Shown here one piece after another: positions 16,203 to 52,986 of a DNA stretch of 64,000 bases. How positions within the stretch are numbered: position 1 is the stretch's first letter; each line of letters starts with the position of its first letter. A program made the translations under genes and the position numbers. The DNA lies in contig JBNKTL010000003.1 in assembly GCA_050298055.1 (NCBI GenBank), positions 77,186 to 141,185 on the forward strand. Direction: 5' to 3'. The notes under the pieces were generated by a model. It worked only from the letters and a program-made list of their open reading frames with translations, was not told where the DNA came from and did no database searches. This DNA is from Spirochaetota bacterium (GTDB lineage: Bacteria > Spirochaetota > UBA4802 > UBA5550).

Positions 16203-16362
16203 CTGTTCGGCTATATATAAAAGAGGAAGTAACGATTCAGCTATGTATAAAAATAATTATATTTAACAATAAAGATAACCGGTATGTCCGCGCTGCCCTG
16301 GGCAGAGACATATTGTTGATATTTTAGAAAACAGGTTGAGCATAGCCATACAGCTGAGTAGT
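16203..16362. repeat. MITE-like palindromic repeat element, copy D.
   Basis: The left arm is ctgttcggctatatataaaag / attcagctatgtataaaaataattat. The central GC hairpin is atgtccgcgctgccctgggcagagacat followed by attgttgat. The right arm is catagccatacagctgagtag. It lies just upstream of the GGDEF gene. Confidence 0.55.
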
Positions 16363-16418
16363 TTCAAAAGAGACAATTTGTCAAAAACAGAAGTGTTATA
16401 CATATTTTTATATTTCAG

Positions 16419-17186
16419 ATGAACGAAAAGAACCAGAACAAAGAGCTCAATGACTTTCAGCTCAGGAATGTGAAGATATTAACACACCTCCTGTCACACG
16501 ATGCCATTGATGATGAAATTGTGGAATATCTCCGCAGGGCGGAACTGGATTACTTCGCCCTTATTGACAAGTATGAAATCCTCGAGCACAAGATCAATGT
16601 TGATGATAAGACCAACCTTCTGAAATACAAAAATGATTACCTCACAAACATATTAAAGACCGCGTCAAGGATCTATTTTGGCGCGGAAAACGCGGCTTAC
16701 TCAATCTCCATGGTGAGGTTTGATATCGACGACTTCTCGGTATTTAATAATAAATACGGCCATGACCTGGGTGACAGGGTCTTAAAGAAAATTGCCGGTA
16801 TCATCAGGTCACATTCACGGCCCACCGATTACGCCATACGGTTCGGCGGAGAAGAATTCGACGTTCTTCTGCCGGCAACAGACCTTGAAGGGACCGGGAT
16901 ATTTCTGGAAAATATCTTCAGGGAGATACGGAAAGCTGAAATCGTTCATAAAAAAGAAAAACTCAGGGCCACCGTAAGTGCCGGAGCTTCTTCAATGGTC
17001 TACAGTTTCAGCAATAATAAAAAGATAGATGAAGATGAAATAGAGAACTACTTTATGCTTCTTCAGAATGAAGCGGATGACGCCCTCTACGACGCGAAAA
17101 ACTGCGGAAAGGACCGGTACTGCATTTATAACAGGTCGAGAAAAGAGGAATATTCAACAATCAGGGATTCCTACTGCGGCAAATAG
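16419..17186 (+). CDS. GGDEF-domain diguanylate cyclase.
   Basis: Has a GGEEF active-site motif (RFGGEEFDVLLP) in a GGDEF fold. The N-terminal region is helical. Confidence 0.8.
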   Translation: MNEKNQNKELNDFQLRNVKILTHLLSHDAIDDEIVEYLRRAELDYFALIDKYEILEHKINVDDKTNLLKYKNDYLTNILKTASRIYFGAENAAYSISMVRFDIDDFSVFNNKYGHDLGDRVLKKIAGIIRSHSRPTDYAIRFGGEEFDVLLPATDLEGTGIFLENIFREIRKAEIVHKKEKLRATVSAGASSMVYSFSNNKKIDEDEIENYFMLLQNEADDALYDAKNCGKDRYCIYNRSRKEEYSTIRDSYCGK

Positions 17187-17198
17187 GAAACACCGGGA

Positions 17199-18233: not shown

Positions 18234-18242
18234 GAGTGCCCT

Positions 18243-19163: not shown

Positions 19164-19168
19164 CCCTG

Positions 19169-20404: not shown

Positions 20405-20636
20405 TAAATTTTGCCCCCGGATATAGTCAAGATATTAATAGTGTGTAATTTCACGAAGAGTTGTTAGAGAAATTTTAAATACAATAGAACATAACTTTCA
20501 GAAGATTAGCAACGGAGGTTATGAATATAGTTTCGAGTTCCAGGTTCCAAGTTCTTTGTTCATATACAGAGTCTTCAACTCGAAACCCGGAACTATACAT
20601 GCCTCTGTGGTTAATCCTAAAATTGGATGAAAAGTA

Positions 20637-21566: not shown

Positions 21567-21640
21567 ATGAATGTAGATATTGAGCAATGAGTTGTTTCTC
21601 TGTCAATAGAATAAAAAGGGAGAAGAGTCAGGAAACACAA

Positions 21641-21846
21641 CAGGTGCTCATCGAGTGATCCTGCATCTCTATATACCGTTTCCTGGCTACTTTGTGAGCA
21701 GGATCGTATCAAGGTGAGCTTCGCTCGCTATGACAGCTCTTTTTAATCTAAAATTAAAACTCTTCTCTGTTCCCCTCGATACAATTTGCCGCATTTTAAA
21801 ACACAAAGCACTGAATCAATAAAGCGGCAAATCACTCGGGGAACAC
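21641..21846. repeat. Composite palindromic intergenic repeat, copy 2 (modules X and Y, without Z).
   Basis: 21641-21732 matches the reverse complement of 15552-15650, and 21768-21846 matches the reverse complement of 15704-15780. Because each module is itself palindromic, the relative orientation of the two copies is ambiguous. Confidence 0.6.
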
Positions 21847-21874
21847 AACAGAATGACTGCATCCCTCAATCTTC

Positions 21875-22312: not shown

Positions 22313-22458
22313 AGCATTCCCTTATTCTTTTTATTAATTTTAACCCGCTGTTTCAGGAAAATCAATAACTATTTGTCGAAATATCTATTGTAAATATTCT
22401 TTATATCTGATTACATGGGAAGAAAATATTCTTTTTTCATGAGCGATCAAAAGGAACC

Positions 22459-23664
22459 ATGAAACAGGGGAGATGGAAGAAGGGGCTTACGAGAAACGTC
22501 GTCATCCTCGGCTTTGTAAGCTTTCTTAACGACAGCGCATCTGAGATGATCTACCCGCTGTTGCCGGTATTCATTACGGCCGTGCTGGGCGCAGGCCCCG
22601 CGGCACTGGGCATCATCGAGGGGATTGCCGAAACAACGGCATCGCTCCTGAAACTCTCTTCCGGCTACCTTTCCGACCGTACCGGGAAACGCAAAGGATG
22701 GATCGTGGCCGGATATTCCCTCTCCAACATTATCAGGCCGGTCATCGCCTTCACCACGTCCTGGTTCCAGGTGCTGGCGCTCCGCTTCTCGGACCGCGTG
22801 GGTAAGGGGCTTCGCACGTCACCGCGGGACGCCGTCATTGCCGATTCCACGCCCGCTGAATTCCGGGGCAAGGCCTAAGGCTTTCACCGGGCCCTGGACC
22901 ATGGGGGCGCCATAGCGGGACCCCTCGCCGCAACGGGGCTGCTCCTGGTCTGTCCCGGTGATCTTAAAACCGTATTTCTTCTCTCCTTCGTCCCCGGTTT
23001 TTTCGCCCTCTGCATGCTCGTTTTCGGTCTCACGGAAAAACGACCGGTAAAACCACGTACCACTTCATCATCTTTCGACTTAAGGACCGCGTGGACGGAA
23101 ATCTCCCCTGAATTCCGGCGCTATCTCATGATCATCTTCCTGTTCACACTGGGAAACTCAACGGATGCCTTTCTTCTGCTGCGGGCGCAACAGCTGGGTG
23201 TACCCGTGACTCTCCTGCCCATGATCTGGGTCGTGCTCCACGCGGTCAAAGCGGCGTTCTCTGTTCCCGGCGGCATTATATCTGACCGCATGGGAAGAAA
23301 GAAAGTCATCATCGCGGGGTGGATCGTATACGCTTTTGTGTACGCCGGATTTGGCACAGCATCACAGTCCTGGCACCCATGGGCGCTTTTCGGCATGTAC
23401 GGTATCTATTTCGGTCTTACGGAAGGGACGGAGAAGGCACTCGTCGCCGACTTCGCACCGGTCCGTCTCCGCGGTTCCGCATTCGGTCTTTATCATCTTT
23501 TCACGGGACTCGGGGCGTTTCCCGCGTCACTGATCTTCGGCGCCGTGTGGCAGAAATTCGGTCCCGCGGCGGCCTTCGGTTTGGGCGCGGCCTTATCGCT
23601 CACAGCAAGCGTGCTGCTGTTTTCACTTGCGGTTAAAAAACCGGGAAAGGGACCCGTTTCTTGA
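22459..23664 (+). pseudogene. MFS transporter interrupted by a single in-frame TAA at 22876-22878.
   Basis: ORFs 22459..22878 and 23014..23664 are in the same frame, and the frame stays open between them (...FRGKA*GFHRALDHGGAIAGPL...). The N-terminal part has the MFS motif (GYLSDRTGKRKG) and the second half has its repeat (GIISDRMGRKK). Confidence 0.6.
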
Positions 23665-24929: not shown

Positions 24930-25322
24930 AACCGGATCGTTAAACATTAAGGAATACGCTACAACCGAATACTGTTAATGGCCGGGTTAGTTACGCATTA
25001 AGGAAAACAACCCGGAGAAATATGCCCGTTACTCTGAGAAGGGATCCATTTCCCTCAGGGAAAGGGATCAGATCCTTTTTGCGTAATTCCCGATCTTATC
25101 AAGCCATTTTTTCCGTTTCTCATTACTCATGCCTGTAACGGAACCCACCTTGATCACTTTCACCTTCTTTATTCCGCAGAATTTAATTGTTCCCCTGACC
25201 AGGGACCCTTTGAGAGGATTGCCCACAAAATAATCGTAGTAGAAGTTTGGTCCCATCATTGTTGTTATCACTGTGGCTCCCTTTATATGGGTCAGAAGTA
25301 TGTATTCATAATGATATGTTTC

Positions 25323-25451
25323 TGCTCAGCTATATGGCTATAATCAACCTATTTACTCAAATACAGACAATATGTCCCCGCCGCCGAAGGCAGCGGGGAC
25401 ATCAGTTATCTTTTTGATGAATATAATTATTCTTATACATAGCTGAGTAGT
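25323..25451. repeat. MITE-like palindromic repeat element, copy A.
   Basis: Left arm ctgctcagctatatggctataatc. Central hairpin tgtccccgccgccgaaggcagcggggaca. Right arm gatgaatataattattcttatacatagctgagtag. Confidence 0.6.
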
Positions 25452-25633
25452 TACAATGATTTAAACAAAAACTCCTTATAAAACTGTCACTTTTTTCTAT
25501 CACTCCTTTTAACATCTGAATTTACTCAACTGTATGTTAAATAAATTAATTTTCTCGCCCCTGTAAACGAATAGTTACACAATCAATAATTATTCCGGTT
25601 GACATTTTGCATAAAATTCCTTAAATAAATTTT

Positions 25634-26116
25634 ATGGATTATTTTGAGAAATTTATTGAAATAATAAACGAGTTGGAAAGAGAAAAAGTGGAGTATGTTC
25701 TGGTTGGGGGATATGCGGTAATATTACATGGACTCCCACGGTTTACTCAGGATATAGATCTTTTTATAAAACCTGAAAGTATCAATATTGAAAAATTTAA
25801 AAAGGCGCTGTATACTGTTTTTAAGGATGATAGTATAAAAGAAATTACTCTTGATATGCTTAACGAATATCCGGTTATACGCTATGGAACACCTGAAGAA
25901 TTTTATATAGACATAATTGTCCGTATCGGATCAATGTTTTCTTTTTCAGATATTGAGTATGAAATAAAAAAAATTGATTCGCATTCAATAAAAGTAGCAA
26001 CTGCTGAAACACTCTATGCAATGAAAAAGGACACTGTAAGACCAATAGACAAGTCAGATTCTCTCTTTTTACAAGAATTGATAAAAAAATCAAAAAAGAA
26101 ACAGGAAAACATGTAA
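25634..26116 (+). CDS. Putative nucleotidyltransferase-fold protein.
   Basis: The N-terminal motif VLVGGYAVILHGLPRFTQDIDLFI resembles the GS/GG...D.D minimal nucleotidyltransferase signature. No closer family assignment is possible. Confidence 0.45.
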   Translation: MDYFEKFIEIINELEREKVEYVLVGGYAVILHGLPRFTQDIDLFIKPESINIEKFKKALYTVFKDDSIKEITLDMLNEYPVIRYGTPEEFYIDIIVRIGSMFSFSDIEYEIKKIDSHSIKVATAETLYAMKKDTVRPIDKSDSLFLQELIKKSKKKQENM

Positions 26117-30936: not shown

Positions 30937-32136
30937 ATGAAAAGAATTTATGATAATATTATCACAGACCACTTTTCCGAAAACCGGCAGATGATCATGA
31001 TCAGCGGTCCCCGGCAGGTAGGCAAAACCACAACAGCAAAAACAACTGACCCGCATTTATACTATAACTGGGACAACCGGGGACACAGGTCAAAAATACT
31101 TTCAGGCTATAATGAAATCATTAATTCCGAGGACCTATCAAAGACTCCGTCAAAGGGGACACATATAATCTTTGATGAAATACATAAATACTCAAAGTGG
31201 AAGAATTATCTCAAAGGTTTTTTCGATACCTATGAAGAGGAGTACAGGACAATTATAACCGGCAGTTCACGGCTTGATATATACAGGAGGGGAAGCGACA
31301 GCCTTATGGGACGGTATTTTCTTTACAGGATGCACCCCTTGACTGTGGCAGAACTTTTTAGGCAAACACTTCCAGGAGAAAAGCTTATAACCTGTCCTGA
31401 AAAATTTACCGGTAAAGACTTCAGACAGTTGATGGAACTAGGTGGTTTTCCGGAACCTTTTCTTAAAGGGGATAAAAGGTTTTATAAGAGGTGGATTAAA
31501 CTCCGGCGACAACAGCTTTTCAGGGAGGACCTTCGCGACATGACCAGCATCAGCGAGATCGACCAACTGGAGATCCTGGGACAGCTCCTGGAAAAGAGAG
31601 CGGGCCAGCTGATCAATTATACAGGACTGGCAAGCGATATCCGGGTAACAGTGAACACCGTCAGAAGATGGATAACGACCCTTGAACAATTCTATTACTG
31701 TTTCCGGGTAAAGCCGTGGCACGAGAATATCCCCAAGACTCTCCTTAAACAGCCAAAGATCTATTTCCGTGACTGGAGTATTGTTGACGATGAGGGGCAA
31801 AAAAATGAAAACATGACCGCTTCCCATCTTTTAAAGGCAGTTGAACTCTGGACCGATCTCGGTTATGGAGACTTCGGCCTCTATTTTTTAAGGGACAAGG
31901 TAAAAAGAGAAGTGGATTTTCTTGTATCCAGAAACGGCAGTCCCTGGTTTATTGTCGAAGTTAAATCTTCAGGCTCAGGGGGACTCTCACCGTCACTAAA
32001 GCATTTCAATTCACTATTAAAACCGGAACATGCCTTTCAACTTGATTTTTCCGCAAAATATATTGACCGGGACTGTTTTGAGGCCGGTAAGCCCGTGATT
32101 GTCCCCGCAGTGACCTTTTTTTCACAGCTTGCGTGA
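30937..32136 (+). CDS. AAA-family ATPase with a C-terminal DUF4143 domain.
   Basis: Walker A motif (GPRQVGKTT), a Walker B-like IIFDEIH, and the characteristic C-terminal region. Total length is 399 aa. Confidence 0.75.
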   Translation: MKRIYDNIITDHFSENRQMIMISGPRQVGKTTTAKTTDPHLYYNWDNRGHRSKILSGYNEIINSEDLSKTPSKGTHIIFDEIHKYSKWKNYLKGFFDTYEEEYRTIITGSSRLDIYRRGSDSLMGRYFLYRMHPLTVAELFRQTLPGEKLITCPEKFTGKDFRQLMELGGFPEPFLKGDKRFYKRWIKLRRQQLFREDLRDMTSISEIDQLEILGQLLEKRAGQLINYTGLASDIRVTVNTVRRWITTLEQFYYCFRVKPWHENIPKTLLKQPKIYFRDWSIVDDEGQKNENMTASHLLKAVELWTDLGYGDFGLYFLRDKVKREVDFLVSRNGSPWFIVEVKSSGSGGLSPSLKHFNSLLKPEHAFQLDFSAKYIDRDCFEAGKPVIVPAVTFFSQLA

Positions 32137-32446
32137 TATACAGGGGGCAGAACATTAATAAAATTTTTTGTGTCCTGCAATAACAACTAATGACATTATA
32201 TATAATAGGGGAAATAAAATGTAACGACCGGTACTTCGACCGCATAATTTTGAACTAATCATGATTGGTTAACTGCTGAAATTTCCAACTATTAAAAGAA
32301 TCTTATGGGTGCAAAATCACGCGGGCTCAATACCAGAAATTTCAGCAAAACCGGAATCTTAAAAAAAAGTGAATTGACAGATTATTTAAAAATTCTTAAA
32401 TCCTTTGATGACAGAGCGGTAAGATACATAACGGTTTTTGATATTA

Positions 32447-32575
32447 CTTAGCTGTATGGCTAAAATATACATATTCAATAAATAACAGCCATATGTCCAC
32501 GCCGCGGTCGGCGGCGGGACACATCACTTATTTTTTTATTCATGAGCATATTTGTTTTTACAAACAGCTGAGTAG
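32447..32575. repeat. MITE-like palindromic repeat element, copy B.
   Basis: Left arm cttagctgtatggctaaaatatac. Central hairpin tgtccacgccgcggtcggcggcgggaca followed by a T-run. Right arm acaaacagctgagtag. A Z-module fragment of the composite repeat lies about 100 bp upstream. Confidence 0.6.
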
Positions 32576-32648
32576 TAACTAATATTTTTTGATGATGTAG
32601 GTTATTAATTTTTAGGAATAAATACTGATAAAATAACTGTATTTAATC

Positions 32649-33506
32649 ATGAAAAGCCGTTTCAAAAAGAGCTTCCTTTTTATAAGCACAATTGCGTTTC
32701 TTATCATCCCTAATATTTCCTCTCCTGAAATAATCTACCTGAAAGACGGCCAGGTTTTGAAGGGCGCTATTATCCATGAAGATAAAGAATCCATAACATT
32801 ACAAACTAAATACCAGGCACGAAAGATCTACCGGGACCACATCAAAAGAATACTCTACGGTGACAGGGCAATGGAGAAGATCAACATCCTCCTCCGAAAC
32901 GGGAAAATATTAAGGGGATTTCTCGTGGACCAGGACGCGGAGAAAGTGATATTCCGGGAAAAGAGGGACTCGACCGAAGAGGTAACTCTCCGGAAAGTCA
33001 GCATAAAACAGATGTCCCCCGATGAGATAAAGCTTCTCTCGCCGGACATCTTTTTTCACCTGGGATATTATCTCCCCGTGAGCAAAGGGAAAACGGAGCT
33101 CTCTATCAGCCCCCTCTATACTCTCGGCAGCGGAATAAATTTTATCTGGATAAATAGGACGCGGTTGACTCTGGAGGCCGGGTACAGCAGGATCAGGGGG
33201 AAGGAAAACAAAGATGAATATATGCAGAACATTCCCGTGACCCTGAATTCACTCTATTCAATCCCCTTTGCGCATTTTAACCTGGTGCCCAAGATAGGGA
33301 TGGGGTGCGTTATCTCAGAGTTTAAAGACAGCGAGAACAACCGGTACAGAAGCTATGATCTCACCGCCGGCATGGGCGCGGGGATGGAGTACGGATTAAC
33401 GAAGAAGATCAATATCGGTATCTGGATGGAGTATAATATGATCTTTGAGAAGGGTACGGTCTTCAGCGGGGTGGTTGTGAAGACGGGGTTGGGGTTTGTT
33501 TTTTGA
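32649..33506 (+). CDS. Outer-membrane beta-barrel protein with two N-terminal SH3-like repeats.
   Basis: Signal peptide present. Two roughly 45-aa repeats (IIYLKDGQVLKGAII... and INILLRNGKILRGFLV...). C-terminal amphipathic beta strands end in GLGFVF, with a terminal Phe. Confidence 0.6.
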   Translation: MKSRFKKSFLFISTIAFLIIPNISSPEIIYLKDGQVLKGAIIHEDKESITLQTKYQARKIYRDHIKRILYGDRAMEKINILLRNGKILRGFLVDQDAEKVIFREKRDSTEEVTLRKVSIKQMSPDEIKLLSPDIFFHLGYYLPVSKGKTELSISPLYTLGSGINFIWINRTRLTLEAGYSRIRGKENKDEYMQNIPVTLNSLYSIPFAHFNLVPKIGMGCVISEFKDSENNRYRSYDLTAGMGAGMEYGLTKKINIGIWMEYNMIFEKGTVFSGVVVKTGLGFVF

Positions 33507-36500
33507 GTACCAGAATCCCCCGAAGGGGGACTTTAAGATTTTAGTTGGAGGTAATGGGATGAGAACAGAGATCTTTAACGGGTGGGATTTTATTCACAAC
33601 TTTCGACTAACATTTCGTAAAACATTTAGGCTGCGCTTTCTCGGGTTATATGTTTCAATAATAATCGCGTCTTTAATGAGCTGCAGTGACGGGGCGGTCA
33701 ACGCCTACCTGGACTATGAACCGAACAGGGCGCCGCAGATCCTAGACCTGCAAAGCGATTTCACCGGCCTGCCTGTTCCCGGGGATATCATGACCGTAAG
33801 CTGTGAAACCTATGACCCCGACGGGAACCCTCTCACCTACGACTTTACCTCAGGCCAGGGGAGCTTCACGGGCCAGCAGGACAGGGAGGGAAAAAGTGAA
33901 ATAACATTTGTTGTGGGCAATATTTCCGGGGGTGAAGAGGTCACTGTCTCCGTACAGGTCACCGACAGCAAAAACGCCTCTGCCGCAGCCACCCTCAATA
34001 TCGGAACAAGCAGCCTGGGCCCGGCAATCACCCTTCTGGGATCGGATAACAGGACCATAGGGGCCGATGGGTATTCAGCGGTGACATTCAGGTCAAGCAT
34101 GGACGGCTTTTACCAGGTTGATCTCGCAGACAGCGGAATAACCGGAGATGAAATAGATCCGGATGGATATTTCTTTTTTATTCAAAAGAACACCGATACT
34201 GTTTTCAATATATGCGGTACCAGCTATAGTGATAATGAATGTATTGCCGGTATTCCGAAACTCGAAACCGATTCTGCAAACAGTGTCTTCATCAAGGTCA
34301 TGGACGGTATGGGGCAGATTTCTGTTCGTGAGATCGTAATTACCGTGCTGGGTACCACTCCCGTTGTGGGAAACCCGGAGATACGTATTACCGATCTGAA
34401 GGATGACGCCATGACCCTTAACTGGAACTTTGCAACAGACCTGGATAACCCCGAAGCCGGTGAGCAACAGCAGGGGATGGACTACAGTGTCTATATGTCT
34501 GAGAATGATAATATCTCCACACTGGAAGACGTGGAATCTTACGGGAACAGAGTAATGGATTGGAAAGCTGATCTAAATTTCTTTACTGTTACCGGTCTTG
34601 CTCCTTCCACTACATATTATTTTAATGTAGTGGTGATGGATGGTGACGGGGTGAAGGAGGTTTATGGGGGTGTTGAGGGGAGGACGGAGGAGAGGACATA
34701 TTTTCAGGTAATCTCCACTGTGCCGGCCCCGGATGTTACTGATGTTGATATTAATTCCAAAATTGTGATAGCATTTAACAGGGAGTTAAACGAGGAAACC
34801 GTCAATGAGGATACGATTGTCCTGAAAGATACCCATGGTGATGAAATTCCTGTGAAACTCAGTCTCTCCGGCAGTAATATGGTTATTATCGTTGAACCTG
34901 TGGACAATCTTGATTATGGGATGAAGTATTATATGACTGTTTCTTCCGGTATGGAAGATGTTCAGGGGGATGGTCTCGGGGATGATTATGTTTTTGGGTT
35001 TTCTACGAAAGTCAGGTGTACAAGCTGTTTTGTGACAACGTGGAAAACGGATAATCCCGGGACTTCGGAGGATGATCAGATCACTATTCCGGTTTATAGT
35101 GGTGAAACTTATGATTATTCTGTAGATTGGGGGGATGGGAGCAGTGATGAACATCTCACAGGGAGTGCAACCCATACTTATGATGTTCCTGGTATTTATA
35201 CCGTTAGCATATCCGGGACATTTCCAAGGATATACTTTTTTAATTCCGGGGATAGGGAAAAAATATTGACAATTGAGAGTTGGGGGGAGATTGAATGGAC
35301 GAGTATGGCATCTGCATTTTTCGGATGTAGTAACCTCACATATAACGCTACAGATGCCCCTAATCTTTCCGGTGTTACTGTTATGAATTATATGTTCTAT
35401 AATGCACTTTCTTTAAACGGAGATTTCAGTGGATGGGACGTCAGTAATGTTGCAGATATGAGCTCTATGTTTGCGTACGCCACTTCATTCAACGGCGATA
35501 TTAGCAGCTGGGATGTAAGCAGTGTTACAAATATGTATGGTATGTTTTGGAATGCTACTTCATTTAACAGAGATCTCAATAACTGGGATGTTAAAAATGT
35601 TATTAATATGTTCTTAATGTTTGGAACTGCTACTTCTTTTAATGGAAATATCAGCGGATGGGACGTTAGTAATGTTACTAATATGTCTGGCATGTTTGAG
35701 TCTGCCACTTCATTCAACGGAGATATTAGCAACTGGGATGTAAGCAGTGTTACAAATATGTATGGTATGTTTTGGAATGCTACAACATTTAACGGGGATA
35801 TAAGTGGATGGGATGTTAGCAATGTTACAGATATGAGATTGATGTTTCGTAATGCTTCTACTTTTTCAAATCATGATCTTAATGGTTGGGATGTTAGTAG
35901 TGTCAAAGTAATGAGTTCTATGTTTAATGGAGCTTCTTCTTTTAATGGAGATATCAGCAACTGGAACGTTAGTAATGTTAAAGATATGATCTATATGTTT
36001 TATAATGCCACTTCATTCAACGGTGATATCAGCAGGTGGGATGTCAGTAGTGTTACAGATATGTACGGCATGTTTCGGAATGCCACTTCATTCAACGGTG
36101 ATATCAGCAGGTGGGATGTCAGTAATGTTAAAAATATGAGTTCTATGTTTAATGGAGCTTCTTCTTTTAATGGAGATATCATTAACTGGAACGTTAATAA
36201 TGTTAAAAATATGATCTATATGTTTAATAATGCCATTTCATTTAACAGAGATATTAACAAATGGGATGTGAGTAGTGTTACTAATATGTATGGGATGTTT
36301 TGGGGCGCAAGTACTTTTAACGGGGATATGAGCAACTGGGATGTCAGCAATGTCACTAATATGGCATTTATGTTTTATAACGCTTCTGATTTTAATGGAG
36401 ACACCAGCAGATGGGACGTCAGTAATGTTATATATATGGATAGCATGTTTTTTGGTGCTCGTTCTTTTAACGGAGATATCAGCGGCTGGGATGTCAGCAG

Positions 36501-37095
36501 TGTCACTGATATGAGCAATATGTTTTATAACGCAAAATCATTTGAGAAAGATATCAGTGATTGGGATGTAAGTAGTGTAACTAATATGAAATTTATGTTT
36601 TTTGGTTCCTCTTCTTTTAACGGAGATATAAACGGATGGGATGTCAGCAGTGTCACAAATATGAATGCAATGTTTGCTTACGCCACTTCTTTTAACAGGG
36701 ATATCAGCAGGTGGGAGGTAAATAGCGTCAAAAGTATGGTAAGTATGTTTTGTGGGGCTTCTTCTTTCAATGGAGATATTAGTAGCTGGAACGTCAGCAA
36801 TGTCACAGACATGAACTCTATGTTTTATAACGCTACTTCTTTTGACAAAGATATCAGCAAATGGGATGTTAGCAGTGTAACAAATATGACAGGGATGTTT
36901 CGAGGCACAACTTCATTTAATGGAGACATAAGTAACTGGGATGTCAGTAGTGTTATAAATATGAGTTATATGTTTTATAACGCATCTGCTTTTTCATACC
37001 ACAATCTCAGCGACTGGGATGTTGAAAATGTTACTGATCACACGGGATTTTCAACAGGATGGGGAGATGGGAATATGGAGCCTGAGTGGCCGTGA
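33496..37095 (+). CDS. Large surface lipoprotein with N-terminal Ig-like domains and about 22 tandem DUF285 (BspA/Mycoplasma-type) repeats.
   Basis: 1199 aa. The likely true start is MRTEIF (33556), with signal and lipobox IIIASLMSC. From about residue 620 the 25-aa unit FNGDIS.WDVS.VT.M..MF....S repeats continuously. Confidence 0.75.
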   Translation: MFFEYQNPPKGDFKILVGGNGMRTEIFNGWDFIHNFRLTFRKTFRLRFLGLYVSIIIASLMSCSDGAVNAYLDYEPNRAPQILDLQSDFTGLPVPGDIMTVSCETYDPDGNPLTYDFTSGQGSFTGQQDREGKSEITFVVGNISGGEEVTVSVQVTDSKNASAAATLNIGTSSLGPAITLLGSDNRTIGADGYSAVTFRSSMDGFYQVDLADSGITGDEIDPDGYFFFIQKNTDTVFNICGTSYSDNECIAGIPKLETDSANSVFIKVMDGMGQISVREIVITVLGTTPVVGNPEIRITDLKDDAMTLNWNFATDLDNPEAGEQQQGMDYSVYMSENDNISTLEDVESYGNRVMDWKADLNFFTVTGLAPSTTYYFNVVVMDGDGVKEVYGGVEGRTEERTYFQVISTVPAPDVTDVDINSKIVIAFNRELNEETVNEDTIVLKDTHGDEIPVKLSLSGSNMVIIVEPVDNLDYGMKYYMTVSSGMEDVQGDGLGDDYVFGFSTKVRCTSCFVTTWKTDNPGTSEDDQITIPVYSGETYDYSVDWGDGSSDEHLTGSATHTYDVPGIYTVSISGTFPRIYFFNSGDREKILTIESWGEIEWTSMASAFFGCSNLTYNATDAPNLSGVTVMNYMFYNALSLNGDFSGWDVSNVADMSSMFAYATSFNGDISSWDVSSVTNMYGMFWNATSFNRDLNNWDVKNVINMFLMFGTATSFNGNISGWDVSNVTNMSGMFESATSFNGDISNWDVSSVTNMYGMFWNATTFNGDISGWDVSNVTDMRLMFRNASTFSNHDLNGWDVSSVKVMSSMFNGASSFNGDISNWNVSNVKDMIYMFYNATSFNGDISRWDVSSVTDMYGMFRNATSFNGDISRWDVSNVKNMSSMFNGASSFNGDIINWNVNNVKNMIYMFNNAISFNRDINKWDVSSVTNMYGMFWGASTFNGDMSNWDVSNVTNMAFMFYNASDFNGDTSRWDVSNVIYMDSMFFGARSFNGDISGWDVSSVTDMSNMFYNAKSFEKDISDWDVSSVTNMKFMFFGSSSFNGDINGWDVSSVTNMNAMFAYATSFNRDISRWEVNSVKSMVSMFCGASSFNGDISSWNVSNVTDMNSMFYNATSFDKDISKWDVSSVTNMTGMFRGTTSFNGDISNWDVSSVINMSYMFYNASAFSYHNLSDWDVENVTDHTGFSTGWGDGNMEPEWP
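35350..37010 (+). repeat. Tandem coding repeat array of DUF285 units, 75 nt each.
   Basis: About 22 consecutive units with the conserved core tggga(t/c)gt(c/t)agcagtgt.acaaatatg...atgtttt. Several units are near-identical at the DNA level, for example 36000-36075 versus 36070-36145. Confidence 0.7.
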
Positions 37096-40100: not shown

Positions 40101-40576
40101 ACACGGGGATACGTTGTAGTTGAAGTTAATTCCGTTGTAAAATTCCATGTATAGATCTGGTCAACTGACTTAGTCCCCTCAGCGGCTGTGGAGGTTACGC
40201 CAGTATTCAGGGTAACTGTATATAAAGTACCGGGTGTAAGATCAGTTGTTGGATTAAGCGTTATAACTTTGCTATCAGTGCCAGGTGCAGGATAGGTTGC
40301 ACCATTATCAATGCTTATATTTGCAGCAACCGTTGTGAAATCCACAGTATTTGAAAAAACAATGACAATATTTGCATCAACGGGAACATCACTCGAACCA
40401 TCTGTTGGATATGCGAGAAAGGCATTCATATCCGATATGCCCGGTTCAGAAGTTGTAACAGTTGTATTAATACTTGCAGGTTCAACAGTTGGAGCTATAT
40501 CAGAACAGCCTGTTAAGACCAGTATTATAAAAATTATTACTTTTAATAGAACATTAATTTTAATATTGTCATTCAT
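37121..40576 (-). CDS. Giant Thr/Ser-rich surface lipoprotein, a putative adhesin or S-layer-like protein.
   Basis: 1151 aa with signal and lipobox (ILVLTGCSD). The N-terminal region is extremely Thr-rich with Ig-like repeats (TYTVTLNTGVTS, TLYTVDLTPAITDGTY). Confidence 0.7.
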   Translation of the reverse strand: MNDNIKINVLLKVIIFIILVLTGCSDIAPTVEPASINTTVTTSEPGISDMNAFLAYPTDGSSDVPVDANIVIVFSNTVDFTTVAANISIDNGATYPAPGTDSKVITLNPTTDLTPGTLYTVTLNTGVTSTAAEGTKSVDQIYTWNFTTELTSTTTYPRVIPGTQSPTGGTVNINTPYVEVTFTKPVVGVDGASFTITPAVIGSSVSQVGGTNTYRIDFVNPMAYNTLYTVDLTPAITDGTYPLIEDGEDTWTFTTETDPASGGTTPTTTTNINEDTAATNSIWISFNTDMPFTRLQTYVQYGTTSGTYGTNTVETDWDGDGIDEHSYHRIQLTGLTPNTLYYYRVWIDIDNSGGYTVGDLASAEYSFFTAPNVGTGGKVVTDVANDQGTLKSVQNSDGSSYIFWIDNSTDIQAQYFDTTGTPQWGVDGSDITSSGSAFSSINVLNSRYTNDDAIIIGRRTDNDILYAKMVYNGLAYRWGGPAGSDGTSVSVVATQTGSGFSAALVHERPTVKVTGQADMPDDGVATNLLFDRDVDFSGLSLSLSFTLAAGDLLLTNTAGINWNSNNIQNQNTSPTDIFEYVLKTNLNSNLGAYTNYYLADTSTNVITGISGHASTDTTHIRSSFTDLTSVVAGDIIVTGDSEWGLANGAGIWNGGCPCYEVEIDRTLTLLAQFDSFTIYRNHEGPFTSEAVSNPLWDRDPSVAFNPGVTVLADDIVINENNNSVAATKSEVVNPLTGSESNYALELNADIIDDNDFYAILSLPSGATYVAAGYSTSTTAFRLVDTNTDLSAGITKGDIVYNIDQDISAEIISLIDANNVELSADIFTAASQKYVIYTKRAFMVVYIDTADDLKGRVFNLASGAAIGGEISIDTGTFSNPVAVSDEAGRTIVFYEGSGNIHAKSIAADGTESWARTNILTSYSITQVLPDRATSGVGGAYLLADNGSGSIRIVRINGSTGATRAGFPVSITGYNPDIAVDKSTNGINRILIAYENNGGDSYSDIVISSYNPNGSSSFAATRITSDLVSYYCLQPKLVVSDTTSAGNDTFYAAWYDGRYYSTVGYQVYAQRFNSDGTKSTSGNWDNVTGNELFIMTPSTYGIPSELDMKLLFYDDDASTAPFGIIPVWLDFRNSSVTGTDIYYQEVQDDGILP

Positions 40577-40855
40577 TATTGTATTATATTGATTAAAAAA
40601 ACGAATCTTCTTAATGTGATGTATATTAATACTTCATATATATTAAAAAAGAGTAAATTTTCTTGATTTTTATCGCAAAACTCACTAACTTTGCCCATTA
40701 ATACAACATCTTTTTTTAGAAAGTATACACTTTTTAATGGAATATCTGGTACTCAATATTAATGAAATTCTAATAAAATAGAGAATTAATTTCAACAAAA
40801 ATTGAAAAAAAATAGAAAAATCAAATAATATCTTTAATATTAATAATATAAAATG

Positions 40856-40970
40856 AATAACTACTCAACTATATATCCCCATCACCTTAAGTTGTGGGTA
40901 TTTATTAGTTTTATTTTTTTACTGAATATAATTATTCCTAATACATTATTCACATTGTTGAGTAGTTATT
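40856..40970. repeat. MITE-like palindromic repeat element, copy E (variant).
   Basis: Perfect 14-bp terminal inverted repeats aataactactcaac ... gttgagtagttatt. The internal tract gaatataattattcctaatacat is shared with copy A. A weak central hairpin is cccatcaccttaagttgtggg. Confidence 0.6.
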
Positions 40971-40988
40971 AAAATTACAGGTTTAATT

Positions 40989-43433
40989 TTGAAAAAATTA
41001 TCTAAGAGTATAAAAAATTATAAACTTTTTTCCCCTGTATTAATAATTGCCCTGGTTTTTTTGGTTACCACCAGGTCAAAGGGCGCAATAACATCCATAA
41101 CTTTGACACCGGGAAATCCCACGACCTTATCCAATACACTTGGTTATTATCTTGCGGGCAGACAATATACATTTACTGTAAATGTCAAGGATCCTGCCGC
41201 AACAGCATGGGCAGATATCACAGAGGTACGTCTCAATATACCTAATGGACCGGCAATTGAATTATGGGTGAACCCATCAGGTACAGGAGCTCAGACAATT
41301 AATTATGTGTCAGGAGTAACATCCGATGTATCTGCAAATATCCCAGGTACTGATACTTATAATGATTTTGATGTCCAGTTTACCATAACTGTATTGTGGA
41401 ACATTGCAGAATCCAGTTGGGCAGCATCAAGAGTAATTACAGCACAGGCTGTATCATCAAATACATTAAGTACAACTCAGAATGTTTCCTATGGAGTATG
41501 TTCTTCCATAAGATTTAATAATTTTGCCCAGGATTTAGACGCACTTGATGGTTATGTAAGCCCCTGGCACAATGCCTTTAACGTTACAGGGGCAATTGTT
41601 TATGATGTGCCTGGAGCGACAAATAGTGATAAGGTCTATTTTGTAAATGGAGGTTCGGAACTTACCAGTGTAAGATTATTGCATAATGGAGTTGACACAA
41701 CTGGCATGAGTACTCCTCTTACTGCTGATTCCGCTTTTACGAATGATGCTAACGACGATGTCTCTATTACTGTATCTGCTGCGTTTTTTAATAGCAATAG
41801 CTTAGCATTAAGTACTTTGCCATGGACAGTTCAAGCCTATTTCTCAACAGGAAGTGGATCTGAGGTTTCCAGCAATTCTTTAAATATTACAAATGAAAGG
41901 GTGGAAGTTACATCTGTAAGGTTAATAAATGGCGGCGGTACGGATTTATCTCCTGTGCCACCTCCCGAAGCCAGGGTCTATAACCGGTCAGTTAATGTTT
42001 CAGGTGTGCAACTTCAGGTTTACGCAAGGATGCAGGGCTCTACAGGAACTGTTATTGGGAATACAACTGTTAGAGTAAGGGACATTACTGATACTATTGA
42101 TTATGATGTTGTTATAAACAATGGCACAAATGTTGGGACAGTAAATCTTTCAGCGTTTTCTTATCCAACAACTCCGGCAACTGCTGGAAATACAAATACA
42201 CACACCTATCAGGTTACAAATATTTCAGGAAGTGTAACTGACAGTAATCAAAATGTTTATGCAAGGATCCTTCAACCTGGGAATAATGGAGGATCCGATA
42301 CTATTGTCTATTGGGATAATGCCGACCAGCCCGGTAATAATGGATCATCATTTACAACCTTTCAAGCAACACCATGGTCATCAACTGCAGATTCATTTAC
42401 AATTAATTGGAATGCTATTCCCAACGGTACTACATTTGACGGGGATTTTTATACTTACAGGATATATTATCAATTGCCAAGTACAGTGTGGAATATGTTA
42501 GATGTCAGTACCGGAGGTATCTATACTGCCTTGGGCACTTATACAACAAATACTATTGATATTTCAGGGCTTGCTCCATTAACTGACTACCCTTTTAGAG
42601 TTTCGGCAGTAGATGTTTATGGCAACGAAGTTGTACTGGCTGACATGCTAACTGATACAGCCAGTACAAAACCATCATCACTTACCGTATCAATATCTGA
42701 TGGAATAACCACATATGAAGATTCATCTTTCACAGGAAACCAGCTCGCTACAGCAAGACCAGTAAGAAAATCATCAATAAAAGTAACTCTTTACCTCGTA
42801 ACTGGAGGAAATGAACCTGATGAGATCAACCTGATTATTGGTGACAATTCTCTTGAACCAGCAACTATTCTGGGTAGTACATATTATACAATACCCAGTA
42901 CAAAAAAATCATCAAATACATGGGTTGCATATATACCCAGCACACATACACTTATGTCTTTAAATGAATCTATAAGGTTTATCGTGGAAACAAAATATCA
43001 AGGAACAAGTACTTATGTTGATCATGATGCAGACTATAATCCTGCAGAGCAGTTGCCTGCAGGTGAAGATTATAATAACTGGGAATATACTTTTACTATT
43101 TCAAAACCAACCACCTTCTCCCCCTGGCCCACACGCATTCTGAACAACGTCATCACGGACAAAAACCCCGTGGCCTACCCGGCATACTACCTCACCGAGG
43201 ACGCCAATGTGACAATAAGGGTCTATGACATAAAGGGAAGGCCGGTTGTGACCCTGCTGGACAATGCCTTCAGGCGGAGCGGCCAGAACATCAAGGAGAA
43301 CGGCTGGCGGGGGATCAACAAATCAAGCAGGATGCTGGGACCCGGTCTCTATTATATGCATTTCAGGGCCAAAAGTTCTTCCAGCGGGAAGGTCATACTC
43401 AACAAGTTCAAAAAGGTGGTCATCGCGAAGTAA
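40989..43433 (+). CDS. Large secreted protein with a C-terminal T9SS-type sorting domain (Por secretion CTD-like); it begins with a TTG start.
   Basis: Signal peptide present. Thr/Ser/Asn-rich beta-type repeats with an FN3-like region. The C-terminal 80 aa (VTIRVYDIKGRPVVTLLDN...GPGLYYMHFRAKSSSSGKVILNKFKKVV) resemble the T9SS CTD (TIGR04183-like). Confidence 0.65.
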   Translation: MKKLSKSIKNYKLFSPVLIIALVFLVTTRSKGAITSITLTPGNPTTLSNTLGYYLAGRQYTFTVNVKDPAATAWADITEVRLNIPNGPAIELWVNPSGTGAQTINYVSGVTSDVSANIPGTDTYNDFDVQFTITVLWNIAESSWAASRVITAQAVSSNTLSTTQNVSYGVCSSIRFNNFAQDLDALDGYVSPWHNAFNVTGAIVYDVPGATNSDKVYFVNGGSELTSVRLLHNGVDTTGMSTPLTADSAFTNDANDDVSITVSAAFFNSNSLALSTLPWTVQAYFSTGSGSEVSSNSLNITNERVEVTSVRLINGGGTDLSPVPPPEARVYNRSVNVSGVQLQVYARMQGSTGTVIGNTTVRVRDITDTIDYDVVINNGTNVGTVNLSAFSYPTTPATAGNTNTHTYQVTNISGSVTDSNQNVYARILQPGNNGGSDTIVYWDNADQPGNNGSSFTTFQATPWSSTADSFTINWNAIPNGTTFDGDFYTYRIYYQLPSTVWNMLDVSTGGIYTALGTYTTNTIDISGLAPLTDYPFRVSAVDVYGNEVVLADMLTDTASTKPSSLTVSISDGITTYEDSSFTGNQLATARPVRKSSIKVTLYLVTGGNEPDEINLIIGDNSLEPATILGSTYYTIPSTKKSSNTWVAYIPSTHTLMSLNESIRFIVETKYQGTSTYVDHDADYNPAEQLPAGEDYNNWEYTFTISKPTTFSPWPTRILNNVITDKNPVAYPAYYLTEDANVTIRVYDIKGRPVVTLLDNAFRRSGQNIKENGWRGINKSSRMLGPGLYYMHFRAKSSSSGKVILNKFKKVVIAK

Positions 43434-48451: not shown

Positions 48452-48590
48452 AGGTCTGTTGTCGTTCCTGTTTTTTCTATTTACAGGAATGAGCATGGTT
48501 ATGTCAAGATAAAATGTTGGAGATGCTCTTTTCCCCAGACGATACCTGACTCTTTGACTTTGTAAATACAAAACAGAAGTAAAATATATC

Positions 48591-49886: not shown

Positions 49887-49960
49887 GACTCCCTCCCCCC
49901 GTCCCCCGGAGGGGGCGCAAGATATTTTTCCAACACTCTTATGCCCCCTTTGGGGGTTAG
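49887..49960. terminator. GC-rich palindromic segment between convergent genes, a putative bidirectional terminator.
   Basis: ctccctccccccgtcccccggagggggcg followed by a T-run, then ccccctttggggg. It sits between the stops of a + gene and a - gene. Confidence 0.35.
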
Positions 49961-49979
49961 GGGGTCTTAGCTTCCTGGA

Positions 49980-52445
49980 CTACATCTGGAGAAATTTTAA
50001 ATACTCTTCAATCTCTTCCGGATATTTACCCTCTCCGTCCTGGTACTTCTTGTATCTTCTGAGAAATGCCTGGTAGGTCTTTGCGGATACGTTCTTATAC
50101 CTGTTGGCAAACTTGTTGAAAGCCGGCATGCTTTCCAGCCTGTCCCTGATCTCCTGCCTGAACGGGATATGTTTAAAAAACATTCCCCGGACAATATTGT
50201 TCATCTTCATGATACCGTCCTTTTCAAAAAGCACCCAGAGAAGATAATCGTCGGCAAACCTGTCCCTGTTTGTTCTCAGGCTCTTGAACCTCATGGTTAT
50301 CTTATCCTTGGCCTCCATGGAGAGATTGGGATTCTTCTTATAGGTATTAACATAGTCAAAATACTCACCGGTGATCCCCCCTTCAATGGGGTCCGCCCAC
50401 ATTGCCTGTCCCTTAATGGTCCTGTTGAGCTCCCAGCGGAAACAGGCAAGGGTATGCGCGATACTCTTCCTCAGGTCACCCATAAAAAATATCGGGACAA
50501 CAATCCTCCCCCGGGACCTCTTGTCGATACCGGAAAGTTCCTGCCAGAGAAGGGTCCGTGTTCCGAATATGGGAAGCATGATAAAATAGGGCAGCACCTC
50601 CTCCTGGATGATCTCCCGGGCATCCCCCAGCTTCAGAACGGTCTCTCGCAGGAAAACGGAAAAATCGATATCCATGATCTCCCTGACAATGTCACTGATC
50701 TTCTTTTTTGAGCTGTAGAGCGACTTGAGGCTTCCCTTGACGGCATATTCGTTTAAAATAGGAAAAGCGGTTGCGGTGGACCCTGAACAGACCGCGGAGG
50801 TACTCCTGAGCCGCTGTTCAATCTCATATACGGTTTTTTTCAGGTTTTCATCCTCAATCTCATTCTTCATCTCTTCCGATTTTTTCCTGGTCGCGTGTTT
50901 GGCTTCCTCCCTGAGATGCGCTTCGTAAGTAAGCCCCATCTCGGTGATACTGGGCATCTCCTCACCGGAATGAATAAGAGAGAGGAAATCCTGTTCATAA
51001 AAGACGGGAATATCCGCTGTCTCCTCTCTCATTCTCAGCAGTTCAAGAAGATCATTTATCTGGGCATCTTCAAGAAGAGCTTCGTCAACAAACCCGTAGT
51101 TGAGCATAAGACGTACCGGAATGGGGAGGTTCGACTCAGCTTTGCTTCTGATGTATACCTGTTTGTAAAGCTGCCAGTACATTTTGGTGATAAATCTTCT
51201 TATCTTGCGTCCTTCTGTTTCGGTATCAAAGGGATTTTTCATCCCTTTAAAATCATTGAGAAGCTTGATGAACCGCTCCCGGAACTCCTTGTCAATAACT
51301 GAGAATTCAAATATCTGGTTCATGGACCGGGCAACTTCCTTTATGTTCCCCTTTGAAGCGGAAGCCGCACTCCTTTCAGGTGCTGGGGCCCCCTGTCTTG
51401 CCCCGGCCGGGGCTGCTTTCCCGCCGGTCTTAAAGTAAAGATGGATCCTTTTCAGGCCGGGAAATTCCGCGGTAAGTTTACGGCCGGAAACCTCCTCATA
51501 GACTGAATTGATCTTAACAATAAGGGTCAGAAAATCCTTCACAAAACCGTCATGAAGCCGCCCTGTGCTTTTCCACTGGTCAAATCCCCCGTTATCGGTA
51601 AGGAAGGTGGTCCAGCTTACGCCGTCCCCGAAAAGCCTGTTCATGACCTTGTAGACATGCGAATTCATTCGTTCAATATCATTCAGGACCGCAATAAGAT
51701 TTCCCGTCAGGGCGCTGTGCATCATGGCACCGATCTCAGGATCTGATTTAACCATGGATGAAGAAATCGTCCCATCAAGCATCAGGATCCTTTTCACAAA
51801 CTCATTGAGATCACGGTTGCCCGACCCGTCATCTCCTGTTTCAATTGAGTAGTCTTTATTGAAATACCTGCTGCTGTCAGTCACAAGAAATTTTGCCGTG
51901 AACTCCCGGGGGATTTCTCCCCCGCCGGATTTATATTCATTGTAGAGATCATTGGCATTCATATCAAGTTTCTCATCGGCGCCTGAAACCGAGAGTTCCT
52001 TATAAATGAGTGAGATATTATCGCTGACCCTGGATACGTTTCCGTAGAGCTTGTTTATCTTATCCGTACTTTCGGAAAAGCTTTTCTTCAGTGTATAGAG
52101 GTGTTTGAGGATATTAAGGGCCCTGGCAGGATCGGAACGGGACAGCATCTTAAATCCGCCGCTGACCGGGATCCTGGTTACCAGGGAATCTGCTATTGCC
52201 CTCACTGTCATTGTCCCCGGTTTTACCAGGTCGGGGCTGAATGAGGGAACCGCTCTCTTACCCGATAACACCCCCACCCGGGTACTCTTGGAGAGAATTA
52301 TCGACGGATCGAGACCGTCAAACTCATCTGAAGCCGACAGGATTTCCAGCGCACCGTCCTGAAGAAAAAATATCTCCTTCGGGATATTACCCTGGTAAAA
52401 GAGAACATCTCCTTTTTTTACCTGCTGTCCTGCATTACCTGTCAT
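49980..52445 (-). CDS. Large hypothetical protein with an N-terminal cNMP-binding-like domain.
   Basis: 821 aa. The N-terminal beta-barrel-like region is KGDVLFYQGNIPKEIFFLQDGALEIL. A Pro/Ala-rich linker (GGKAAPAGARQGAPAPE) sits near residue 350. The C-terminal half is helical. Its start overlaps the HNH gene by 11 nt. Confidence 0.6.
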   Translation of the reverse strand: MTGNAGQQVKKGDVLFYQGNIPKEIFFLQDGALEILSASDEFDGLDPSIILSKSTRVGVLSGKRAVPSFSPDLVKPGTMTVRAIADSLVTRIPVSGGFKMLSRSDPARALNILKHLYTLKKSFSESTDKINKLYGNVSRVSDNISLIYKELSVSGADEKLDMNANDLYNEYKSGGGEIPREFTAKFLVTDSSRYFNKDYSIETGDDGSGNRDLNEFVKRILMLDGTISSSMVKSDPEIGAMMHSALTGNLIAVLNDIERMNSHVYKVMNRLFGDGVSWTTFLTDNGGFDQWKSTGRLHDGFVKDFLTLIVKINSVYEEVSGRKLTAEFPGLKRIHLYFKTGGKAAPAGARQGAPAPERSAASASKGNIKEVARSMNQIFEFSVIDKEFRERFIKLLNDFKGMKNPFDTETEGRKIRRFITKMYWQLYKQVYIRSKAESNLPIPVRLMLNYGFVDEALLEDAQINDLLELLRMREETADIPVFYEQDFLSLIHSGEEMPSITEMGLTYEAHLREEAKHATRKKSEEMKNEIEDENLKKTVYEIEQRLRSTSAVCSGSTATAFPILNEYAVKGSLKSLYSSKKKISDIVREIMDIDFSVFLRETVLKLGDAREIIQEEVLPYFIMLPIFGTRTLLWQELSGIDKRSRGRIVVPIFFMGDLRKSIAHTLACFRWELNRTIKGQAMWADPIEGGITGEYFDYVNTYKKNPNLSMEAKDKITMRFKSLRTNRDRFADDYLLWVLFEKDGIMKMNNIVRGMFFKHIPFRQEIRDRLESMPAFNKFANRYKNVSAKTYQAFLRRYKKYQDGEGKYPEEIEEYLKFLQM

Positions 52446-52809
52446 CTTCCGGTCCTTCTCCTTCGGATTTTTTCAAACTGTTTATATACTCCTCCCACTC
52501 AAGGGGAAGGAGATATTTTTTCTTATTATTACACTCTTTGCATGCCGGGACAAGATTGTTTTTTTCCGACCGTCCCCCTTTTGAGAGAGGAATTTTGTGA
52601 TCCATGGTCAGATCACCGGGATTGAATTTTTTTCTGCAGTAGTGGCAGATACCGGTTGAAGTTTTCTTCCTCCACCAAGGGGATTTTCTCAACTCCCTGG
52701 CCCTGTTTTTTTCAGAAGCTATTACAGATTGTTCACTCACACCGGTGAAATAATTATGCCCTTTGTCCCTTCTCAGCCTCTTCGATCTTTTTCTGTCCCT
52801 GTATGACAT
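52435..52809 (-). CDS. Small HNH endonuclease.
   Basis: HNH motif CHYCRKKFNPGDLTMDHKIPLSKGGRSEKNNLVPACKECNNKK, preceded by a basic N-terminal tail. Confidence 0.7.
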   Translation of the reverse strand: MSYRDRKRSKRLRRDKGHNYFTGVSEQSVIASEKNRARELRKSPWWRKKTSTGICHYCRKKFNPGDLTMDHKIPLSKGGRSEKNNLVPACKECNNKKKYLLPLEWEEYINSLKKSEGEGPEDDR

Positions 52810-52854
52810 AGTTTAGTAATTCTCTCTTAAATAAGCTAATTTGTCAATTAGTAA

Positions 52855-52986
52855 CTTCTCATCTATGTATAAAAATTGGCATGTTAACAAAAAACAAGAC
52901 TGGTGTGTCCCTGCCACCGGAGGCGGCGGGGTCACATTGTTGATGCTTTTATTGAATAAACATATTTTTTAATCATATAGCTGGGT
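52855..52986. repeat. MITE-like palindromic repeat element, copy C.
   Basis: Left arm cttctcatctatgtataaaaattgg. Central hairpin gtccctgccaccggaggcggcggggtcac followed by attgttgat and a T-run. Right arm atcatatagctgggtc. Confidence 0.55.

Follow-up and report, generated by a model that had tools for sequence, protein, structure and literature searches.

The 64-kb window considered here (64,000 nt of contig JBNKTL010000003.1 of a Spirochaetota bacterium, assembly GCA_050298055.1, contig positions 77,186 to 141,185) contains five look-alike intergenic blocks close to the starts of genes, which raises the question of whether they are copies of one element and, if so, of which kind. The results indicate that the five blocks, designated c1 to c5, belong to one family with copies of 113-142 bp in the window, and that the family is very probably a non-autonomous DNA transposon of ~140 bp, that is, a transposable element of the miniature inverted-repeat type (MITE). 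A first-pass annotation of this DNA had proposed a MITE and had also likened their hairpin and T-run to a mobile terminator, an attenuator or a small structured RNA. The copies, with coordinates refined by alignment to the inverted-repeat consensus, are as follows.

c1, 16229-16365, minus strand: 137-bp copy; nhmmer E = 5.8e-36; ends GAAACTACTCAGC / GCTGAATCGTTAC
c2, 25318-25454, plus strand: 137-bp copy; nhmmer E = 2.2e-40
c3, 32440-32579, plus strand: 140-bp copy; nhmmer E = 5.4e-38
c4, 40857-40969, plus strand: 113-bp copy; E = 1e-4 (model without c4) and 7.7e-11 (11-copy model)
c5, 52851-52992, minus strand: 142-bp copy; nhmmer E = 3.5e-35

The sites agree with those annotated before, with the correction that the earlier start of c1 at 16203 takes in 26 nt of flank. 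The segment concerned (16200-16225, ctgttcggctatatataaaag) is weakly element-end-like with an nhmmer E value of 2.1, and may be the remnant of another copy or chance.

After c1 and c5 were reverse-complemented, c1, c2, c3 and c5 could be aligned end to end with MAFFT. The nhmmer profile built from these four copies, with c4 left out, matched its own members with E = 1e-35 to 1e-40 and recovered c4 at E = 1e-4; beyond the five copies, no match below E = 0.4 was found in the 64-kb window. Copy c4 is a shorter variant that lacks ~40 nt of the left arm and carries a 10-nt insertion in the right one; its inverted repeats match at 16 of the 18 outermost positions. The terminal-repeat pattern CAGCTGAGTAGTWAC, scanned with up to 3 mismatches allowed, occurred 10 times versus 1.2 expected, and 8 of the 10 occurrences were ends of the five copies. 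A two-ended pattern was observed 2 times, versus 0 matches in 100 shuffles. The search for more copies by hidden Markov model that the first-pass annotation had advised yielded two more in this genome and four in related species. The four-copy profile matched the two copies outside the model, just beyond the window start, with E = 1.2e-31 and 4.8e-27, and those in related species with E = 1.4e-21, 3.4e-19, 2.8e-12 and 8.6e-14. The shared architecture, the alignment and the profile E values together identify the five look-alike sites as copies of one family, whose full copies within and outside the window span 113-144 bp. An 11-copy profile retrieved no extra members from the sequences examined. 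Pairwise identity within the 11-copy set was 52-81%; the family is therefore old and diverged.

The elements end in terminal inverted repeats of ~17 bp with the consensus 5'-GTAACTACTCAGCTRT ... AYAGCTGAGTAGTTAC-3'. Of the first 24 positions, 14-17 pair in c1 to c6, and the complementary ones cluster within the outer 18. Over its full length the element is an imperfect palindrome: every full copy also matches the profile with its reverse strand, at E = 1e-7 to 1e-20. The longest stop-free stretch is 33-46 aa, bounded by the element length, and no transposase is encoded because the element is only 113-142 bp. The centre is formed by a GC-rich stem-loop of up to 13-14 pairs with A/T-rich tracts on either side, c4 being the exception in the window. 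The central stem-loops are listed below.

16284-16311, in c1: atgtccgcgctgccctgggcagagacat, bulged; folding free energy (dG) -13.6 / -15.1 on the two strands
25372-25402, in c2: GC-rich, 14 pairs, 10 of them G-C
32494-32521, in c3: GC-rich
40877-40898, in c4: ccccatcac cttaa gttgtggg, an AT-richer stem
52905-52935, in c5: GC-rich, two mismatches

The GC-rich hairpin is thus present in c1, c2, c3 and c5, in line with the four of five copies claimed earlier, with c4 AT-richer. The further claim that the hairpin is followed by (A)TTGTTGAT and a T-run holds literally on the plus strand only for c1 and c5, since these are reverse complements of c2 and c3, in which the motif is approximate and on the minus strand.

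Copies were also sought outside the window. Through look-ups of edge proteins the readable contig was extended to 87.6 kb, and two full copies, c6 and c7, were found 88 nt apart just past the window start, where they occupy most of a 432-nt spacer from rdgB to a PAS histidine-kinase gene. The 87.6 kb of this one contig therefore contain 7 copies, every one of them intergenic. Contigs of relatives with flanking genes ~80-83% identical carry four more copies at other places. In the coordinates below L039 is this genome, and the other handles denote contigs of related species.

L039:13418-13557: c6, full copy
L039:13646-13785: c7, full copy
L041:4240-4347: copy in a relative
L060:1777-1920: copy in a relative
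L061:8183-8297: copy in a relative
L062:900-1031: copy in a relative

Comparison of corresponding sites revealed occupied and empty states. The copy in L061 breaks up a stretch that runs uninterrupted in this genome (L039 ~5580), and L060 (~14390) is element-free there too. The counterpart of the c1 spacer in L042 is ~150 nt shorter and without the element. In L041 the same spacer contains a truncated copy that is closer to c5 than to c1, a resemblance which suggests an independent insertion into the c1 spacer; the L063 contig stops short of this site. Relatives L061 and L062 lack copies c6 and c7, and the 46-nt stretch between them is 91% conserved (L039:13584-13629, L061:125-170, L062:3365-3410). 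The rdgB-histidine kinase spacer is 428 nt in the two relatives versus 432 nt here, with unrelated segments of ~150-215 nt at the places of c6 and c7. The 46-nt stretch is possibly a regulatory site, and a different repeat family may lie behind the replaced segments. Copy c5 is also found in a second metagenome-assembled genome (MAG) of the same species, L037, in a region that is 99.95% identical.

Duplication of the target was evaluated by fixing the ends through alignment to the inverted-repeat consensus and then comparing the 8 nt on either side. For the seven copies of this genome the flanking 8-mers agreed at 7, 7, 7, 6, 5, 4 and 3 of 8 positions, a sum of 39/56. The null value was 2.95 matches per mismatched left-right pair, or ~21/56 expected, and permutation gave p = 0.001 for a sum of 39 and p = 0.005 for three copies at 7 or more. 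The three copies c2, c4 and c5 reached 7/8 at zero offset, and the copy in L062 is flanked on both sides by a perfect AAAATATT duplication. The duplicated targets are AT-rich and varied in sequence. The flanking repeats of c1 agree at 7/8 at a 2-nt offset from the repeat end and at 5/8 at zero offset. Flanks of the window copies are given below.

c2 target-site duplication: left 25310-25317, AATGATAT; right 25455-25462, AATGATTT; 7/8, zero offset
c4 target-site duplication: left 40849-40856, TAAAATGA; right 40970-40977, TAAAATTA; 7/8, zero offset
c5 target-site duplication: 52843-52850, GTCAATTA; 52993-53000, GTCAATGA, both on the plus strand; 7/8, zero offset
c1 flanking direct repeat, first copy: 16366-16373, AAAAGAGA on the plus strand, equal to TCTCTTTT in element orientation
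c1 flanking direct repeat, second copy: 16219-16226, AAAAGAGG on the plus strand
c3 flanking 8-mers: 4/8 positions match

Prokaryotic MITEs are ~50-800 bp and usually <200 bp in length, with inverted repeats, target-site duplications and an intergenic location (PMC11602168, PMC3184786). With terminal inverted repeats of at least 10-15 bp, a target-site duplication of 2-10 bp and no internal transposase gene taken as the definition, the family described here showed the size, the inverted repeats, the duplication, the lack of a transposase, multiple intergenic copies and occupied versus empty sites. Every testable property of a MITE was therefore found, since inverted repeats, duplications, size, lack of coding capacity and mobility are all in evidence. 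The 8-bp duplications, the further copies and the presence or absence at orthologous sites uphold the MITE proposed in the first-pass annotation.

Several observations weigh against this interpretation or limit it. Only the empty site of the L061 copy has cleanly aligning flanks, the other sites lying in fast-evolving spacers. Most copies have imperfect duplications, and those of c3 and c7 are poor. The maximum pairwise identity is 81% and no near-identical copies were seen, so that there is no sign of recent activity. A search of ~100 kb of this species for an autonomous partner sharing the inverted repeats was negative. The copy number of the genome as a whole is extrapolated, exact-pattern scans of two large collections having produced no further members.

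These scans comprised the two-ended pattern AGCTRTATGGCTA N{80,110} AGCTGAGTAG, with no match in a genome contig collection, and the right-end pattern TYTTATACATAGMTGARNNGTTAC, with no match in a metagenome contig collection; divergence among the copies is too great for exact patterns. With the stem pattern TGTCCMCGCCGCGGTCGGCGGC, 12 matches were obtained in metagenome contigs, all of 65-76% GC; these were rejected as chance because outside the stem none fits the family profile (local matches were weak, E 0.1-0.7). A plasmid collection contained one 30-nt chance match and a phage collection none. No copies were present in the relative L043 (mtnA 75% identical, 21 kb), and no elements came with the proteins found via a 980-aa M1 peptidase, which were all at most 44% identical and belonged to other phyla. 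Loci carrying an identical IS3 transposase held no further copies.

The proposed mechanism is that of a MITE mobilized from elsewhere. A transposase encoded at another locus would recognize the ~17-bp inverted repeats and insert the element into AT-rich 8-bp targets, which would be duplicated upon insertion. Insertions would accumulate in AT-rich spacers with gene starts, mostly between divergently transcribed genes, and the copies would decay afterwards to the identities seen today. We infer that the transposase is of the DDE type and acts in trans. The terminal-repeat core occurs only at known copy ends in the species sequence checked, with no solo or long-range pairs. An insertion sequence of the IS3 family on the same contig was considered as partner and rejected, as its ends TGTCAACATAGTTGTCGC are unrelated. 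This complete 1.6-kb element (L056:9473-11071) lies ~4.5 kb past the window end, equivalent to window positions ~68.5-70.1 kb, and comprises orfA and orfB. Three MAGs from the same study contain identical copies; adjoining the element is a second, oppositely oriented rve gene, and a HigB-type toxin gene cluster is nearby.

An 8-bp duplication is typical of IS66 in the ISfinder family table. The elements likewise combine ends beginning GTAAC with a duplication of 8 bp, a length that is produced by further families too. IS66-family inverted repeats start GTAAGCG or GTAACCG (PMC12888890), and the agreement of the element ends with these stops after 4-5 bases. No IS66 transposase gene, and no full-length element with these ends, was found in the ~100 kb of species sequence. 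An IS66-type source of the transposase is accordingly suggested as a lead only.

The location of the copies relative to genes is consistent with insertion into promoter-containing spacers. All five window copies lie 5' of a plus-strand gene at a distance of 19-179 nt, as follows.

c1: 54-aa gene starting at 16086 (minus); GGDEF gene starting at 16419 (plus)
c2: 63-aa gene starting at 25259 (minus); AbiEii-like nucleotidyltransferase gene starting at 25634 (plus)
c3: AAA_14/DUF4143 gene ending at 32136; outer-membrane protein gene starting at 32649; the only co-directional spacer
c4: divergent genes starting at 40576 (minus) and 40989 (plus)
c5: HNH endonuclease gene starting at 52809 (minus); START-domain gene starting at 53106 (plus)

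Four of the five are between divergent genes and hence are equally 5' of a minus-strand gene. Counting called genes and open reading frames over the 87.6 kb, divergent spacers contain six of the seven copies (five of six spacers) and convergent spacers none, versus ~33% divergent, 58% co-directional and 9% convergent for intergenic DNA without elements. The binomial estimate for this bias was p ~0.007 by copy and ~0.017 by spacer. The start codon is 19-58 nt from the copy in 6/7 cases. The earlier statement that each copy is next to the start of a plus-strand gene is therefore literally true of the five window copies and carries no strand meaning, because four of them are equally 5' of a minus-strand gene and the orientation of the element is mixed. 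The simplest reading is a preference for AT-rich targets combined with tolerance of insertion in promoter spacers.

The alternatives concern what the copies do or are. In the strongest of them the MITE acts, or has been retained, as a mobile bidirectional intrinsic terminator, insulator or attenuator in the 5' untranslated region (5'-UTR), the GC-rich stem with T-rich tails on both strands stopping or dampening transcription near gene starts, as has been proposed for SPRITE, whose terminator-like character is on record (PMC3184786). Many copies have a strong stem (dG -20 to -36 kcal/mol), and in an alignment of 8 copies 85.5% of stem cells are paired and 4 pairs are changed on both sides, mostly owing to c4, in whose stem 3 pairs that are G-C in the family consensus have become A-U by a double change. 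In the scoring of covariation advised by the first-pass annotation, the compensatory changes were only moderately above the shuffle controls, 7-31 of 500 shuffles attaining the observed values. Decay of the stem is visible in the copies of L060 and L062. The first 8 nt after the stem contain 2-7 T on either strand and are thus modestly T-rich, but the T-runs start 4-10 nt after the stem. A simple intrinsic-terminator scan was passed by one of the five window copies (c2, minus strand), and terminator-like sites were not enriched in the copy regions. The proximity to start codons could favor such a role. A terminator lying between promoter and gene would as a rule be harmful. The mobile terminator is therefore not supported as first stated, on account of the single copy passing the scan, the modest T-tracts and the stem decay in some copies, and we consider this interpretation unlikely.

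Promoter motifs were also sought in the copies. A sigma-70 scan gave only junction-spanning matches of 9-10 of 12 at some copies, which is the level found across these AT-rich regions in general, and no conserved outward promoter was recognized by eye in the copies. On the basis of sequence, a terminator, insulator or 5'-UTR role of the element is possible, and an influence of the stem-loop on neighbour genes, through transcription or mRNA, is speculative. The still more specific proposal that the family has been co-opted, the stem serving as a bidirectional insulator, terminator or 5'-UTR stability element and the element perhaps being moved by an IS66-like transposase, is viewed as improbable. 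If it were true, expression of the neighbours (GGDEF cyclase, histidine kinase, toxin-like nucleotidyltransferase and surface proteins) would have been rewired differently in each species of the genus, and the element might owe its movement to a transposase family with no earlier link to MITEs, IS66 for example.

A second alternative holds that the blocks are paralogous genes for small structured RNAs, or a cis-regulatory leader RNA, rather than mobile DNA. Every copy is upstream of genes, the stem shows some compensatory changes, and c2 and c3 fold far better than shuffled sequences (z -6.2 to -7.9; c2 -7.9 / -7.8 on the two strands). However, c1 and c5 fold little better than shuffles (z -0.9 to -3.0), and folding is about as good on one strand as on the other because the element is palindromic. 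The mixed orientation to neighbour genes, the 8-bp flanking duplications and the presence or absence between close relatives also argue against RNA genes. In a search of Rfam only two tRNAs in the window reached the gathering threshold; the copies had no match and at permissive thresholds gave generic hairpin matches far below the cut-off. Mixed orientation, duplications and the lack of an Rfam match make the small structured RNA suggested by the first-pass annotation very unlikely.

REP/BIME-type extragenic palindromes spread by RAYT, an IS200/IS605-like tyrosine transposase, could account for a GC-rich extragenic palindrome, a high copy density and a GTAG tetranucleotide within the terminal repeat (GAGTAGTTAC), but the unit of ~140 bp has terminal inverted repeats and 8-bp duplications, and REPs are not known to make target-site duplications. 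The GTAG is ~50 nt from the GC stem and no tag abuts the stem, while REPs are 20-40 bp long with a GTAG or CGTC tag heading the palindrome (PMC3733652); this origin is extremely improbable. Finally, a chance or low-complexity likeness of AT-rich intergenic DNA has the AT-rich arms and nothing else in its favor and is practically negligible, such a null, named in the first-pass annotation as a refuting outcome, being rejected by independent copies at E = 1e-12 to 1e-31, the terminal-repeat pattern at 10 occurrences against 1.2, and the two-ended pattern unmatched in the shuffles.

The neighbouring genes also bear on the identity of the host. The GGDEF, AbiEii-type nucleotidyltransferase and START labels given earlier were confirmed. 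That of an outer-membrane protein beside c3 was partly backed, by a Pfam beta-barrel match below the cut-off and an NCBIfam Leptospira-type N-terminal domain. The protein encoded at 40989-43433 had been labeled as containing the C-terminal domain of type IX secretion system (T9SS) substrates; neither a T9SS C-terminal domain nor any other NCBIfam family was detected in it. The Bacteroidota context that this label implied is wrong, the nearest taxon-named homologues being almost all Spirochaetota (all of them for mtnA, and mostly for rdgB and the IS3 transposase). Judged from these homologues, the host is an uncultured member of the Spirochaetota and not of the Bacteroidota.

Other features of the window were recorded. 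A second, unrelated repeat family is present at 15560-15780 and 21640-21849, with a module A of ~90 nt, 93-94% identical, and a module B of ~85 nt including a 35-nt stretch that is 100% identical. The order upstream of an AI-2E transporter gene is A-B, and dus has B-A upstream on the opposite strand, which means a swap of the modules and not a simple inversion. Each module contains an internal inverted repeat, and neither matches Rfam. In the relative L041 a 1.7-kb segment with two small genes replaces the first site of this second family. A 1199-aa protein encoded at 33496-37095 (plus) is made up of at least 18 tandem 75-nt (25-aa) units. Models of PARCEL repeat surface proteins match it, TIGR02167 in 15 stretches and the Mbov_0838 family with E = 7e-135, below the model cut-off; the PARCEL repeat is of mycoplasma/Listeria type and occurs here in a spirochaete MAG. 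Positions 8001-10000 form a low-GC island (30% GC versus 42-57% around it) with several small unannotated open reading frames at 8235-9638, and were possibly acquired horizontally. The adjacent short genes at 22459-22878 and 23014-23664 (plus), encoding 139 and 216 aa, both match MFS transporter families and may be one transporter gene split by a frameshift or stop, that is, a pseudogene.

The repeats constitute a previously undescribed MITE family of an uncultured Spirochaetota genus. MITEs as such are already known in this group, many being on record in Spirochaetes genomes (PMC11602168), and with their abundance documented the family raises no new biological question. It is a well-delimited family in a poorly known spirochaete lineage: its ends are defined, its 8-bp target is AT-rich, its body is palindromic and it favors divergent promoter spacers. 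Recurrent 140-bp blocks, which might otherwise be taken for small RNAs, terminators or operators in annotation, are explained by it. The profile can be used for masking and annotating these MAGs. Insertions that differ among congeners can serve as strain or species markers and flag spacers where regulation may differ between relatives.

Small dispersed repeats of comparable kind are known from several bacteria. RUP of Streptococcus pneumoniae is tied to an IS630-type partner with TA duplication. RUP and SPRITE of the same species are likewise small dispersed repeats, of ~105-107 bp, and have no sequence relation to the spirochaete family. SPRITE contains a Rho-independent-terminator-like motif (PMC3184786) and is in this respect near the stem and T-run first proposed for the copies described here, whereas the terminator-like character of the spirochaete family is weak and on both strands. 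The ERIC/IRU elements of Enterobacteriaceae are likewise whole-length imperfect palindromes of ~127-140 bp in intergenic DNA. Elements of the ERIC type are flanked by 5'-TA-3' (PMC3184786) in contrast to the 8-bp duplications of the spirochaete family, and many ERIC copies are at gene 3' ends inside transcripts whereas six of the seven spirochaete copies are in divergent 5' spacers and none in convergent ones.

The Correia repeat-enclosed elements of Neisseria (CREE/NEMIS) are likewise MITEs, of ~100-157 bp with terminal inverted repeats; they too are abundant in intergenic DNA, many 5' of genes, and fold into a long stem-loop, and their mobility was likewise deduced from copies that some relatives have and others lack (PMC3184786). 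The two families share no sequence similarity. Correia elements duplicate TA. A TA dinucleotide target, the trait of both Correia and ERIC, was not found at the spirochaete copies, the flanks of which are varied AT-rich 8-bp duplications. The ~17-bp repeats of the spirochaete family also differ from the 26-bp inverted repeat of Correia elements (PMC3184786). Correia elements have proven promoters and an IHF site, whereas no convincing outward promoter was found by scanning the spirochaete copies; conversely, the central GC-rich stem is a feature of the spirochaete family that Correia elements lack.

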